DNA of 25,828 nt, from the IMG/VR virus record IMGVR_UViG_3300025838_000116, positions 1-25,828 of that record. One strand, written 5' to 3'. Position numbers and translations under genes: made by a program. The stretch is from a virus (Duplodnaviria > Caudoviricetes). The notes under the pieces were generated by a model. The model made no database searches. It was not told the DNA's origin and saw only the letters and a program-made list of their open reading frames with translations. Positions 22,082 to 25,828 of this stretch are shown piece by piece (position 1 is the first letter of the stretch; each line of letters starts with the position of its first letter).

Positions 22082-22801
22082 TCAGTTTTCCCCAATATAG
22101 TCAGCTACTGCGGTCATGATATTAGGTATATCTCCAACTGTGCAAGCCAGTACGTCAAAGTAATAGATAGTCTTGTGACCCCTATTTTGCATTCTTGCTT
22201 GATATTGCATTAACTCCTTAATAGTGCCAATACTGGTGGTTCTCATAACAAACTCACCAAAATTGTCAAACAAGAAAAAATAGGTATATTGCTCATCTAC
22301 CATCTGTTCCAACATTCGTTCGTATTCAACGTGTTGCACTGGATTTCTAAAGTCCATCTCAAAGAACAGTGGTGGCTTGACATGCCAATCCCAGCCGTTG
22401 AACACATCCCAGTCCATGCCGTCAACATCTACTTTTATCAAGCCTATGTGTGTGCGATGAAATTCATTCACAATCAAAGATAAACTTCGTGCCTGAGTTA
22501 CTTTCTCATTTACTAAAACAACGTCACAAGCATAACGCTCCCTGACCAACTGGGCATTCTCTTTTAGCGTCAAATAAGTGCCGTTATCAGCTTCTATGCA
22601 CACAAAATTTAATTTGTGGTTAGCACCTGCCATAGATGCCATAAGCGCACCTACATTTGCACCTACGTCTATAACGCCCCCTTCCAGATACTTAGCCAAG
22701 TGTGGCAAGAATTTGTCGTATAAAGGATACATTATTTGATATTTTTCTAGAGTATGGTTGTGACCCATCTCTATTTGTAAATCATTGATTTTGTATTTCA
22801 T
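22082..22801 (-). CDS. FkbM-family SAM-dependent methyltransferase
   Basis: VIDVGANVG motif I, FVCIEAD, IGLIKVDVDGMD, PLFFEMD. Confidence 0.85.
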   Translation of the reverse strand: MKYKINDLQIEMGHNHTLEKYQIMYPLYDKFLPHLAKYLEGGVIDVGANVGALMASMAGANHKLNFVCIEADNGTYLTLKENAQLVRERYACDVVLVNEKVTQARSLSLIVNEFHRTHIGLIKVDVDGMDWDVFNGWDWHVKPPLFFEMDFRNPVQHVEYERMLEQMVDEQYTYFFLFDNFGEFVMRTTSIGTIKELMQYQARMQNRGHKTIYYFDVLACTVGDIPNIMTAVADYIGEN

Positions 22802-23004
22802 TCTTGTCCCCTTGTTCTGATTTTGAATGCCATAGCTTTTATATGCTCATCAGTAACGATGTTGTCGTAAACATAATCACACATCTTTGCACACTCCTCA
22901 CGTTCTTTAGCTGCTACTAGCTTGGCAAATTTAATTATTGAATCATCAGAAGCAAGATACAAATCTGCTTTTTCAGCTAATAAAAATATTTCTTCTTTAG
23001 TCAT
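22798..23004 (-). CDS. Hypothetical phage protein
   Basis: 68 aa; 'FAKLVAAKEREECAKMC...IRTRG' pattern common in small phage proteins; ATGA overlaps at both ends. Confidence 0.8.
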   Translation of the reverse strand: MTKEEIFLLAEKADLYLASDDSIIKFAKLVAAKEREECAKMCDYVYDNIVTDEHIKAMAFKIRTRGQE

Positions 23005-23750
23005 GGTGCTGGTAGTAAACCACCCTCGAATAAGTAATTACCAAAGTGACCCAGTTGTACCCAAGGTGCTGCCCAGACTTTTAAACCTGCTTCTCTTGCT
23101 TTGTGGCAAAAGTAATAATCCTCAGACAACAATCTCTCCGTGCCTGGCTCTATGGCACAAGCAAAATACTCTGTGATGCGGTCAGACGCTATACCACCAT
23201 GCAGGAATGTAATATCGTTGTTGTAAGTAGGAACGTGTTGTTTAAGTGTCTCAAAAGTCTCACGCTTAATTAACATAAAACCTGTGCCACCGTTGAATAT
23301 CTCAACTGGTTGGTTGGCAGGTACTGTAACAGTACCAGAATAGTCTTTTAAATTGATTACAAGGCTTGCAGTGCGGTGTTTAAGACCTTCGACAGGTACA
23401 CCATCCTTAACGGCTTTATCGACCTCTGTCCAGTTTATTTCCTTCTTAGGATAGATACCGCAGATGATGTCTTTGTCTGCCTCCAACATAGGAATAATGT
23501 CAGGAGAGTTGAACTTGATGTCTGCGTCAATAAACATCAGGTGAGTACATTCTTTTCTAGCCATAAAGTTATGTGCTAGTGCGTTCCTACCACGCTGAAT
23601 AAGTGACTCGTTAAACATAGCACTGTATGCCATATCGTAACCAGCATTGTTAAGAGTTGGACCAAGTGTCAACAAACTCTGTGCGTAGAACCCTGTACAA
23701 ACTCCACCGTACATAGGTGTAGCCACAAATATGTTACCTTTTTTATTCAT
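23001..23750 (-). CDS. GT-A fold (GT2-like) glycosyltransferase
   Basis: IFVATPMYGG, ESLIQRGRN, HLMFIDADI (DxD), GTGFMLIKR, LSEDYYFC, LGHFG; start at 23750 (AAGGA SD) or 23756. Confidence 0.78.
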   Translation of the reverse strand: MNKKGNIFVATPMYGGVCTGFYAQSLLTLGPTLNNAGYDMAYSAMFNESLIQRGRNALAHNFMARKECTHLMFIDADIKFNSPDIIPMLEADKDIICGIYPKKEINWTEVDKAVKDGVPVEGLKHRTASLVINLKDYSGTVTVPANQPVEIFNGGTGFMLIKRETFETLKQHVPTYNNDITFLHGGIASDRITEYFACAIEPGTERLLSEDYYFCHKAREAGLKVWAAPWVQLGHFGNYLFEGGLLPAP

Positions 23751-23760
23751 AATCATCCTT

Positions 23761-23824: not shown

Positions 23825-23873
23825 GACTTTGCGTCTGTAGCAAGCTCCCACTGCTGTTTTTTTAATACTTTTT

Positions 23874-23934
23874 GGTGTCCCTTTTTTGGGTGTACTCCCA
23901 AATTTTGGGGGGGGACACCTTCTGGGGGACACCT
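23874..23934. repeat. Cluster of GGGACACC repeats
   Basis: GGGGGACACCT at 23910-20 and 23924-34; inverted GGTGTCCC at 23874-81; variant GGGTGTAC at 23888-95. Confidence 0.7.
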
Positions 23935-23941
23935 AAAAATA

Positions 23942-24017
23942 TGGTGGGACGTGCGGGGGTCGAACCCACGACAAACGGATTAAAAGTCCGCTGCTCTACC
24001 AACTGAGCTAACGTCCC
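23942..24017 (-). tRNA. tRNA-Lys (anticodon UUU), CCA encoded
   Basis: GGGACGTTAGCTCAGTTGGTAGAGCAGCGGACTTTTAATCCGTTTGTCGTGGGTTCGACCCCCGCACGTCCCACCA, a 76-nt cloverleaf. Confidence 0.97.
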
Positions 24018-24121: not shown

Positions 24122-24451
24122 CTATGATATGTCCTCTATCCGCAGAGTGTACTTGCCCGTCTTTGCGCTCTTCCTCCAGCCGTGCACGACTACTTTGATG
24201 TTCGCTTTCCTGACCCATGATAATGTCTCACTTTCTTGAATTTTTTTGATACGAGATGACACGCCAGATGCGGTCACTTGGACTGCCATTATCTCCTCAC
24301 CTCTCAGGCAAAGTAAATCACACCACCCCCACAAGTCCTTGCGTACCCTCGCAAAAGGATTCCAGTGCTCAACTATCTCCACCAGCCACCCTTCCTCTCT
24401 TAAGTGCGCTAACGAACGTTGTGTAGGTGATGTTTTTTTAGTTACCATCAA
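24122..24451 (-). CDS. PD-(D/E)xK nuclease, Holliday-junction-resolvase-like
   Basis: 'LREEGWLVEIVE...KDLWGWCDLLCLR..EIMAVQVT', an Hjc-like pattern. Confidence 0.7.
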   Translation of the reverse strand: MMVTKKTSPTQRSLAHLREEGWLVEIVEHWNPFARVRKDLWGWCDLLCLRGEEIMAVQVTASGVSSRIKKIQESETLSWVRKANIKVVVHGWRKSAKTGKYTLRIEDIS

Positions 24452-24765
24452 AAAGGAATGTCTGGGTCAGAGTCGTGACTAAATTTTCTAGGTTTAGCGT
24501 AACCAGGTGTAACCTCTTTCGGCTGCTGGTCCTCTAGCTTCTTTTTCTTCAGCCAATTGTCCTCACGAACAGAGAACATGGTTGTCCCCATCTTGGTTTG
24601 CTTTTGCCAGAGACCAAAATTAAGGCGTTCACCTGCTTTGTAGTCCATGTCAAGCACCACGTGACCCGTGAAATCTGGTCCTTGTGGGTGTTTCTTGTCT
24701 TCAGGTGCGACAAAGAAAAGTGTCCCGTAGCCTGGTTTGTCGGGGTAGTTTGGATTAGATGCCAT
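24448..24765 (-). CDS. Probable single-stranded DNA-binding protein (105 aa)
   Basis: Start reassigned to ATG 24765 (AGGAG SD); 'GTLF..KKHPQGPDFTG' and acidic C-terminal DSDPDIPF tail characteristic of SSBs. Confidence 0.7.
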   Translation of the reverse strand: MASNPNYPDKPGYGTLFFVAPEDKKHPQGPDFTGHVVLDMDYKAGERLNFGLWQKQTKMGTTMFSVREDNWLKKKKLEDQQPKEVTPGYAKPRKFSHDSDPDIPF

Positions 24766-24949
24766 GTGTTTTTTCTCCTGATAAATATTTGTACGAGGCG
24801 AACTCTGAGCCGTTGTTTTTAACCATTGTTGTAATGATTGGGTGTCCTTCTTTTCTAAGGACTTCGATATGGGCTGCAAGCCTGAAGCTCCCATAATGTG
24901 CGAGTGCGTCTTGGGGTGTGATGGATAATCCATTTTGTAAGTGTCTCAA
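24755..24949 (-). CDS. Winged helix-turn-helix domain (HTH_39-like), probably expressed as a -1 frameshift extension of RecT
   Basis: 'TQKGNILRHLQNGLSITPQDALAHYGSFRLAAHIEVLRKEGHPI'; the first helix begins upstream of the only conventional start (TTG 24949). Confidence 0.75.
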   Translation of the reverse strand: MRHLQNGLSITPQDALAHYGSFRLAAHIEVLRKEGHPIITTMVKNNGSEFASYKYLSGEKTHGI

Positions 24950-25014
24950 GATGTTACCTTTCTGAGTGCCTATACGTCCTGAGACACTACTGCTTTTGGG
25001 AGTGGGTTACCTCC
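24941..25014 (-). promoter_or_regulatory. -1 programmed ribosomal frameshift signal
   Basis: GGAGGT (25014-09), 8 nt, in-frame C_CCA_AAA (25000-24994), 6 nt, 11-bp stem GTGTCTCAGGA/TCTTGAGACAC. Confidence 0.7.
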
Positions 25015-25791
25015 AGCTTCTCCGATAGCAGCCTTCAGCTTAAGTTTTTCAACCGTCTGAAAACCCTCAACTACCAGCTCATTTGCCATCTTCAGTGAAT
25101 CTACTTTCTTAGACTTTTCAGATTCGACAATCTTGTTGGATGACATGATTCTGCTGACCATGTTGCCGTAAGCACTAATCCAGTCTTCAACAGTGTGGTA
25201 GCTAGAGTGTGGCTCGTCTAGGTTGGGGACGTAGAGCTTAAACGCTCCATCTTCCACAACGTCAATTGGCTGAGTGTCCTCAACTCGCTCCGCAACACCC
25301 ATGTCAATCGTTTTACTTGGTTTAAAGTCTTGAATCTCCTCTGGCGTATAAACCCCAACAACACAGCCTGGATAGACCGAACGTATACCCTCGCTGACGC
25401 ACCTTGCTCTGAGCATAGCCCTGGGGTAATTCCTCCAGTTGTCTTTGTTCGCAATGCCGATGCTCTTTGCCTGTGCCAACGACCAACTGACTTCAAGAGA
25501 CCCGCCTGACGGGTGAGAGAATATGCCTGTGACAACCGCATCTGTGTATTCCTTCCAATTAACGCTACCTCCTGCCTGCTGAAATCTAGCTAACATGGCA
25601 TCTGCCTTGAGAGCTGGTCGACCTTGAATGACATGGTAATCCCGCATAGCAACTGCTGGGTGTAAATTCTCAGCTTGGCATAGCAACATGATTGCCATCG
25701 CCTCTTGAGGATTCTTGAAACCGAACATCTTGCTAGACGCTGCAACCTCTGCCATTTGTGTAATGTCTTGTAGTGGTACTAAATTATTCAT
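24970..25791 (-). CDS. RecT/Redbeta-like single-strand annealing protein
   Basis: 273 aa; 'YHVIQGRPALKADAM', 'AQAKSIGI..KDNWRNYPRAMLRARCVSEGIRSVYP..GVYTPEE'; GAGGT SD. Confidence 0.82.
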   Translation of the reverse strand: MNNLVPLQDITQMAEVAASSKMFGFKNPQEAMAIMLLCQAENLHPAVAMRDYHVIQGRPALKADAMLARFQQAGGSVNWKEYTDAVVTGIFSHPSGGSLEVSWSLAQAKSIGIANKDNWRNYPRAMLRARCVSEGIRSVYPGCVVGVYTPEEIQDFKPSKTIDMGVAERVEDTQPIDVVEDGAFKLYVPNLDEPHSSYHTVEDWISAYGNMVSRIMSSNKIVESEKSKKVDSLKMANELVVEGFQTVEKLKLKAAIGEAGGNPLPKAVVSQDV

Positions 25792-25828
25792 GGTTAACCT
25801 CTCTTTGTTTCATCATTGCGTCTGCCCA
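25784..25828 (-). CDS. 3' end of a small phage protein (truncated by the window edge)
   Basis: ...WADAMMKQREVNHE*; overlaps the RecT start. Confidence 0.55.
   Translation of the reverse strand, partial: WADAMMKQREVNHE

Follow-up and report, generated by a model that had tools for sequence, protein, structure and literature searches.

A predicted programmed −1 frameshift that would add a winged-helix domain to a phage RecT-like annealase

In a partial phage genome, the gene for a RecT-like single-strand annealase is followed, in the −1 frame, by an open frame for a helix-turn-helix (HTH) domain. The locus raises the question of how that domain is made: as a C-terminal extension of the annealase through programmed ribosomal frameshifting, as a small gene of its own, or not at all, the split being an artifact. 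From a comparison of this junction with its relatives, we put the probability at roughly 0.88 that a programmed −1 frameshift yields a 345-amino-acid (aa) annealase with a C-terminal winged helix beside the 273-aa form. The frameshift signal itself is, on the same comparison, very likely programmed and used.

The junction and its surroundings

The window, by which we mean the whole 25,828-nucleotide (nt) stretch of DNA that was analyzed, carries portal, capsid, tail, and lysis genes on its plus strand and an early module on its minus strand, and it ends 37 nt upstream of recT. The features that the argument needs are the following, numbered as in the window.

24970-25791, minus strand: recT, a RecT/Red-beta-type single-strand annealase, 273 aa, the 0-frame product
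25009-25014, minus strand: SD-like GGAGGT, 8 nt 5' of the heptamer, predicted 5' stimulator
24994-25000, minus strand: slippery heptamer C_CCA_AAA, RecT codons L264-P265-K266 (CTC CCA AAA), predicted −1 shift site
24755-25000, minus strand: HTH_39 extension in the −1 frame, a short linker plus winged-helix domain
24941-24987, minus strand: 11-bp hairpin (24987-24977 with 24951-24941, one G-U), 6 nt 3' of the heptamer, predicted 3' stimulator
24947-24949, minus strand: TTG, the sole ATG/GTG/TTG start of the HTH frame, extension residue 18
24448-24765, minus strand: SSB-like gene, likely a phage single-stranded DNA-binding protein, 105 aa, C-terminus DPDIPF
23942-24017, minus strand: tRNA-Lys(UUU), about 1 kb downstream of the shift site
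about 23873-23935: GGTGTCCC repeat, three copies (two direct, one inverted), directly after the tRNA

Read on the minus strand, the order is GGAGGT, 8 nt, heptamer, 6 nt, and 11-bp stem. The −1 frame is preceded by a TAA (25009-25007), is open from 25006, and ends at a second TAA (24757-24755). All of the elements that the original prediction had named (SD, heptamer, spacings, stem, and a −1 frame bounded by TAA codons) were found at their minus-strand coordinates, and recomputation from the sequence returned the same product sizes, 273 aa for RecT and a predicted 345 aa for the fusion.

The ATG of the SSB-like gene overlaps the final codons of the HTH frame in the window. Its product matches PHROG 18154 SSB weakly (E 0.089), and the Pfam search found no match for it. 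An acidic-Phe tail is an SSB hallmark. A glycosyltransferase-like gene (PHROG 1574 and 34859) and an FkbM-type methyltransferase gene, at 23001-23756 and 22082-22801, share the minus-strand direction of transcription. The tRNA-Lys(UUU) was considered as a partner of the frameshift and rejected as not specific to it, because it is present in 13 HTH loci yet also in 8 loci that have no heptamer. A scan for promoters and terminators gave results at chance level only.

Contigs from four of four freshwater DNA runs had no indels over 24400-25828, so the split between RecT and HTH does not come from faulty assembly. One contig from run X1 and one from run X4 bridge the stretches 24589-24755 and 25260-25777; they possibly belong to other organisms at 85% likeness. 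The phages with the RecT frameshift signal form a freshwater group.

Conservation of the phase, the heptamer, and the flanking signals

We assembled 420 loci, including the window, from RecT queries, an HTH profile, and 11 annotated phage regions. A RecT match was present in 410; 27 were dropped as incomplete or with less than 150 nt downstream, and the 383 kept represent 250 distinct junctions. Many contigs were fetched repeatedly and many junctions are near-copies or related, so the counts below are not independent events. Eighty loci were found via the HTH, which enriches the set for the domain and not for phase or heptamer. HTH_39 followed RecT in 243 records (141 distinct junctions), in the −1 frame every time, and a slippery heptamer phased as X_XXY_YYZ in the RecT frame was present in 141 of the 141, the invariance of phase and heptamer that the original prediction had named among its checks. 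The heptamer is C_CCA_AAR in 140 (C_CCA_AAG in 123, C_CCA_AAA in 17) and A_AAA_AAA in one, L352. In this last junction, GGGAGG lies upstream, the −1 frame with the HTH opens directly before the heptamer, and a different slippery motif thus occupies the same position.

This regularity bears on the possibility that the split reflects an error of sequencing or the decay of an in-frame fusion, a reading for which we found nothing in favor. The phase agrees in 243 of 243 locus records, which come from many assemblies; the four runs are free of indels; and of the close relatives found with the C-terminal region (44), none exceeds 278 aa. These results leave that explanation next to no probability, and we regard it as refuted by conservation. 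Nor did we find a convincing natural in-frame RecT-HTH fusion among 7,999 scored candidates. P0121 was set aside as a single contig whose linker resembles an upstream indel and P0122 as unrelated to RecT. An HTH pattern search of genome contigs gave 21 matches, none of which was confirmed. L384, also a single contig, joins the HTH and the SSB-like gene in frame, which resembles an indel in one assembly.

The nucleotide form of the heptamer is more conserved than its amino acids would ask. The codon ahead of Pro takes 13 forms in the 140 C_CCA_AAR junctions, every one ending in C; of the 103 Pro-Lys dicodons at other places in RecT, just 4 have the same nucleotide form; and in-frame C_CCA_AAN elsewhere in RecT was counted 8 times among 56,550 codons, a rate of about 0.007 for a stretch of 50 codons. 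None of the 78 distinct junctions without an extension has C_CCA_AAN in the last 50 codons. We also placed the junctions on a RecT tree (81 dereplicated rows, quick method, last 25 residues trimmed, unrooted). The HTH-less L025, L032, and L035 group with the HTH-bearing L046 and L292 (support 97), and this group is nested in a 37-row HTH clade (support 96). The three HTH-less genes retain the Gly-x-Asp-Pro residues, and the heptamer is gone. We speak of loss because HTH-less rows nest inside the HTH clade of what is an unrooted tree; at least three lineages would have lost the extension, which is therefore dispensable. Judged across these junctions, the heptamer is conserved beyond the needs of the protein and is lost together with the second open reading frame.

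The 0-frame RecT stop lies 3 to 25 codons past the shift. In the overlap of 108 junctions, 60 of 126 changes are synonymous in the −1 frame, 35 of 128 in the 0 frame, and 13 of 118 in the +1 frame. By this substitution pattern, the −1 frame is the more constrained one and is under coding selection. In L085 and L100, the junction and HTH are nearly identical to those of the window, the RecT is about 60% identical, and the genes lie elsewhere on the tree, so that the frameshift cassette apparently passes from one recT allele to another. L161 (public record MW202825.1, 3367-3555) has the same heptamer and SD, and the annotation reduces its HTH to a 37-aa fragment that starts at an internal Met; gene callers in general truncate or miss the extension or annotate the HTH as a separate gene.

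An SD-like sequence precedes the heptamer by 5 to 14 nt in the 140 C_CCA_AAR junctions. Its pairing with the anti-SD reaches −4 kcal/mol or lower in 140 of 140 and −6 kcal/mol or lower in 131 of 140, whereas random RecT windows reach these thresholds in 27% and 12% of cases. The upstream SD that was predicted for the window is in this respect a property of all of the C_CCA_AAR cases. Most lineages spell the sequence with Gly codons and others with Glu codons (MEEV, VEAD, IEDD), a difference that favors selection at the RNA level. Its conservation also follows in part from a conserved Gly. L025, which has neither HTH nor heptamer, keeps GGAGT. Stimulators of this kind work 6 to 17 nt upstream (PMC4066793, in extract).

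The same junctions speak to a fusion made by RNA polymerase slippage instead of by the ribosome. Transcriptional slippage needs long homopolymer runs. L352, with its run of seven A, fits that requirement and is alone in doing so; the window has no run longer than A4, and 123 of the 140 junctions have none longer than A3. The combination of X_XXY_YYZ phasing with an SD-like sequence 5 to 14 nt upstream is, moreover, readable by the ribosome only, and we consider polymerase slippage extremely unlikely. For a ribosome, C_CCA_AAG ranks first among the heptamers measured in E. coli, and motifs of the form Y_YYA_AAR shift with unusual ease (extracts of PMC4066793). Efficiency in the phage's own host would depend on that host's set of tRNA-Lys.

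Downstream of the heptamer, the signal is less uniform. The 59 nt that follow it in the window fold at −18.3 kcal/mol (z = −3.17, with 2 of 200 shuffles equally stable); longer folding windows are weaker (z −1.2 to −2.7). Over 13 close relatives, 99.3% of the hairpin's cells are paired; one pair has changed from U-A to C-G in a compensatory way, and one cell is broken. Of 500 shuffles, 38 reached this conservation score. For 43 diverse HTH junctions, in contrast, the predicted consensus structure contains 0 pairs. The 60 nt after the heptamer in 45 junctions have a mean z of −1.39, compared to −0.62 to +0.34 in flanking windows, yet z falls below −1.5 in just 42% of them; a GUCCC/GGGAC helix is merely 71% paired. 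Among 19 junctions of a second clade, described below, the consensus is limited to three pairs, and the heptamer itself is involved. As these predicted foldings indicate, the 3' element is lineage-specific, with the hairpin conserved only in the window's subclade. The 3' stem of the original prediction holds for that subclade and not for the family as a whole. The pseudoknot offered as its alternative fared worse: it can be drawn on the window sequence and is disfavored, since pair 16-33 of stem 1 is broken in 12 of the 13 close relatives and there is no covariation. Most known 3' stimulators start 6 to 9 nt downstream (PMC5009743, in extract).

The extensions and their possible start codons

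The extension comprises 79 residues after P-K and replaces a 7-residue 0-frame tail. It matches HTH_39 (PF14090) in Pfam with 32.1 bits at a cut-off of 21.3, and its top Atlas match (0.96) is also HTH_39. The predicted model (pLDDT 81.3) has helices at residues 13-22, 29-36, and 41-50 and a two-strand wing at 55-72, and its fold matches are mainly winged helices (best Z 8.1, rmsd 3.6, 70 residues aligned; Foldseek E above 0.02). Sequence searches of the PDB returned nothing significant for the HTH. Nineteen columns are invariant in 21 sequences.

Could the domain instead be translated as a separate small gene, from the TTG at 24949 or by reinitiation past the RecT stop, with the heptamer a by-product of a conserved Pro-Lys? 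A TTG does stand at this position in 77 of the 140 junctions, an ATG overlaps the RecT stop (ATGA) in 19, gene callers annotate the HTH in this way, and AAAGGT lies 6 nt upstream of the window's TTG. At the TTG codon, however, 61 of the 140 junctions have no start (CTG, CTC, CTA, or TTA in 44 and Ile in 17; GTG is found in 2), and 17 have no ATG, GTG, or TTG anywhere between the heptamer and RLAAH, that is, before the recognition helix. A start at residue 18 would remove half of the helix at 13-22, the −1 frame ahead of the TTG is under coding constraint, and the rarity of the heptamer's nucleotide form at other Pro-Lys dicodons speaks against a by-product. We therefore consider a separate gene very unlikely. 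The window's TTG most likely encodes a leucine within helix 1. The original prediction placed the first HTH helix upstream of the TTG, which in the model falls within that helix, and had the TTG buried in the stem, where the 3' arm of the hairpin (24951-24941) does cover it.

A start codon at least 25 codons ahead of RLAAH is present in 20 of the 140 junctions (19 ATGA overlaps and one distant GTG). An independent ATG and ribosome-binding site with variable phase, which was to count against frameshifting, is accordingly not the pattern of the family: the phase is invariant, and 120 of 140 have no early start. In L072, L276, and 17 more junctions, the ATG that overlaps the RecT TGA lies 25 codons before RLAAH, 3 codons before the TTG position, and the heptamer is kept in this subclade. 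These 19 junctions may also reinitiate, giving a nearly whole free HTH beside the fusion. Of six stand-alone HTH_39 genes examined from other phages, five have an ATG a few codons from an S/T-Q motif and the sixth has a longer N-terminus; in the recT-linked HTH, the S/T-Q motif lies upstream of any start. In Rhizobium phage RHEph01, gp19 (L165:1075-1746) carries HTH_39 in frame at the C-terminus of a 223-aa protein that is not RecT, upstream of a primase/helicase gene.

If frameshifting produces RecT-HTH, the product might be a transcriptional autoregulator that binds an operator of the early operon and so reports annealase translation. The fold matches are mostly to winged-helix regulators, and the stand-alone HTH_39 genes of other phages lie near repressors or replication genes, both of which would fit such a role. 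The matches are generic at the Z and E values given above, however, the extension of the second clade is not an HTH, and the only repeat near the window's operon, GGTGTCCC in three copies, recurs in only 2 of the 64 HTH loci with enough sequence (the window and L011), so that it was rejected as the HTH target. We consider autoregulation unlikely. A search of the HTH loci for a candidate DNA site of the HTH found no conserved one.

The second clade consists of RecT genes without the HTH (52 records, 30 distinct junctions, among them L177:1330-1509 and L190:2001-2177 and 28 further ones). They have C_CCA_AAC (24) or C_CCA_AAG (6), a strong SD-like sequence, and a −1 frame that is open for 59 to 60 codons. 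The encoded 59- to 60-aa extension is basic, contains an S/T-V-x-G-F-x-x-I-G motif, is unrelated to the HTH, and overlaps the start of the SSB-like gene by about 28 codons. Fourteen codons separate the RecT stop from the next gene; over this stretch, 19 distinct sequences have 4, 1, and 11 variable columns at −1 codon positions 1, 2, and 3. Read in the −1 frame, the variants are 12 synonymous and 8 nonsynonymous with no stop; in the other frames, the corresponding counts are 2/18 and 1/20, and stops are present. Within the overlap with the SSB-like gene, a T that would create a −1 stop is found at 0 of 130 positions, versus 229 of 619 further on. On these substitution patterns, the second extension, too, is under coding selection. 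It has no Pfam family match, only weak PHROG matches (E 0.04 to 0.06), and no usable Atlas match, and the search with a representative returned two unrelated long proteins. L309, on a contig in a beta-proteobacterial bin, has the heptamer and a 51-codon −1 extension that stops just short of the next gene and contains SVYGLQHIGGLIL, which resembles the motif of the second clade and which may be similar to the N-termini of helicase loaders.

A further reading accepts the frameshift as real and makes it mainly regulatory or subtractive: some ribosomes would be sent to or across the start of the SSB-like gene, or a share of the subunits would lose the acidic tail of RecT, and the added domain would be secondary. 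The SSB-like gene starts no more than about 40 nt from the HTH stop in nearly all junctions, and the second-clade extension runs over that start. A net acidic 0-frame tail is present in 95% of 108 HTH junctions and 30 of 30 second-clade junctions, while the extensions average +5. Against this, the HTH has its invariant columns and a confident fold, the SSB-like gene has its own GGAG, and the exchange of tails is not general: two junctions have a one-residue tail after P-K, the window's tail has a single Asp, and the one-residue tails contradict an acidic-tail swap as a general rule. We think a mainly regulatory or subtractive purpose improbable.

Predicted products, possible roles, and known systems

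The RecT protein matches the Pfam RecT family with 24.0 bits at a cut-off of 24 and PHROG 561 (RecT-like) at E 1.1e-25; sequence searches of the PDB gave no significant match. Its AlphaFold model (pLDDT 69.9, pTM 0.38) has as top Foldseek match lambda Red-beta (7UJL; probability 0.99, E 0.058, TM 0.52 by target) and consists of an annealing domain (about 1-153), a disordered linker (145-182), a C-terminal domain (184-258), and a disordered tail (264-273). The last helix ends at 258 and P265-K266 lie in the tail, so the fusion is predicted to keep all folded parts of RecT. An exonuclease gene lies upstream of recT in 95 of the 97 HTH loci with at least 900 nt upstream; the exonuclease query protein matched YqaJ at E 2.4e-4, just under the cut-off.

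In the mechanism that we propose, tRNA-Pro would slip from CCA to CCC and tRNA-Lys from AAR to AAA in tandem, assisted by SD pairing and, in the window's subclade, by the hairpin. Some ribosomes would thus move one base back and continue as ...L-P-K-S-S-S-V-S-G-R-I-G-T-Q... to a 345-aa protein made beside the 273-aa protein, both forms keeping the annealing domain and the C-terminal domain. The longer form may not be rare, because the family uses the heptamer that is most slippery in E. coli. The two forms would then co-assemble, and the minority subunits would equip the ring or filament of annealase with a few basic grips on double-stranded DNA, holding it at a replication or recombination junction, with the frameshift setting the ratio as in lambda G/GT. 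We give about even odds that the purpose is such a mixed oligomer, tethered to duplex DNA by its minority subunits.

A broader view, which we offer only tentatively, is that the end of recT would be a recoding socket. One signal would plug unrelated modules (a winged helix or a basic 59- to 60-aa peptide) onto a fixed fraction of subunits, which would tether the mixed filament to double-stranded DNA or the replication machinery and start recombination-dependent replication at chosen places. If this were true, the annealase would be tuned by recoding, and the arrangement would supply a design rule for targeted recombineering proteins. More generally, the annealase oligomer is possibly a mixed assembly, which bears on the role of annealase C-termini and on how substrates are found; the use of one signal for two unrelated extensions offers a natural basis for comparison; and mining RecT genes for recombineering would clone the short form only.

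That no frameshifted annealase had been described was part of the original prediction, and we found none in a full-text literature search screened by titles and abstract openings, with subscription papers mostly outside its reach. The words "frameshift", "HTH", and "helix-turn-helix" are absent from an annealase review (PMC11611040), as is "frameshift" from PMC9772228. A recoding review lists, where it treats phages, G/GT, capsid and tail extensions, A2 cro, MS2, and T4 gene 60, with no annealases, and the known phage frameshifts in that section are almost entirely on virion or assembly proteins (PMC5009743). Five prophage frameshift clusters in the supplements of PMC4066793 could bear on novelty (main text in extract).

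Annealases with an in-frame C-terminal HTH, for which domain shuffling among phages has been proposed, resemble RecT-HTH in having an extra C-terminal DNA-binding domain (PMC8093625, in extract). Red-beta and RecT (PMC11611040, in extract; 7UJL) share with the protein described here the predicted annealing fold, a linker, a small helical C-terminal domain, and an exonuclease neighbor. Red-beta's C-terminal domain binds exonuclease and SSB (same extract); the domain here was not matched to that one.

The signal closely resembles those of IS3 elements and dnaX, which also have an X_XXY_YYZ heptamer ending in a Lys codon and an SD-like sequence 6 to 17 nt upstream, and to whose hairpin 6 nt downstream the predicted stimulator of the window's subclade would correspond; IS3 elements likewise make a longer fusion, whereas dnaX yields a shorter product (PMC4066793, in extract). 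IS elements mostly use A_AAA_AAR, and the RecT-HTH family uses C_CCA_AAG, the strongest in E. coli (same extract). The dnaX/IS3 architecture claimed for the window therefore applies as to heptamer and SD-like sequence; unlike IS3 and dnaX, the RecT-HTH family has no family-wide 3' structure.

In its outcome, the system recalls the Ig-like frameshift extensions of T3, A2, A118, and PSA, interchangeable C-terminal modules on a minority of polymer subunits in which close relatives differ in the module added (T3 versus T7); those sit on virion proteins and this one on an intracellular annealase (PMC5009743, in extract). Among the closest parallels is lambda G/GT, a phage gene pair in which a −1 shift near the end of the upstream frame yields mostly a short product and, as the minority, one extended at the C-terminus; the arrangement is conserved over diverged phages (same extract). 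Unlike G/GT, the target here is a DNA recombination protein, and what is added is a winged helix or an unrelated 59- to 60-aa module. The recoding mechanism is a known one; a recombination protein, the annealase, is a new class of target for it, with at least two interchangeable extensions.
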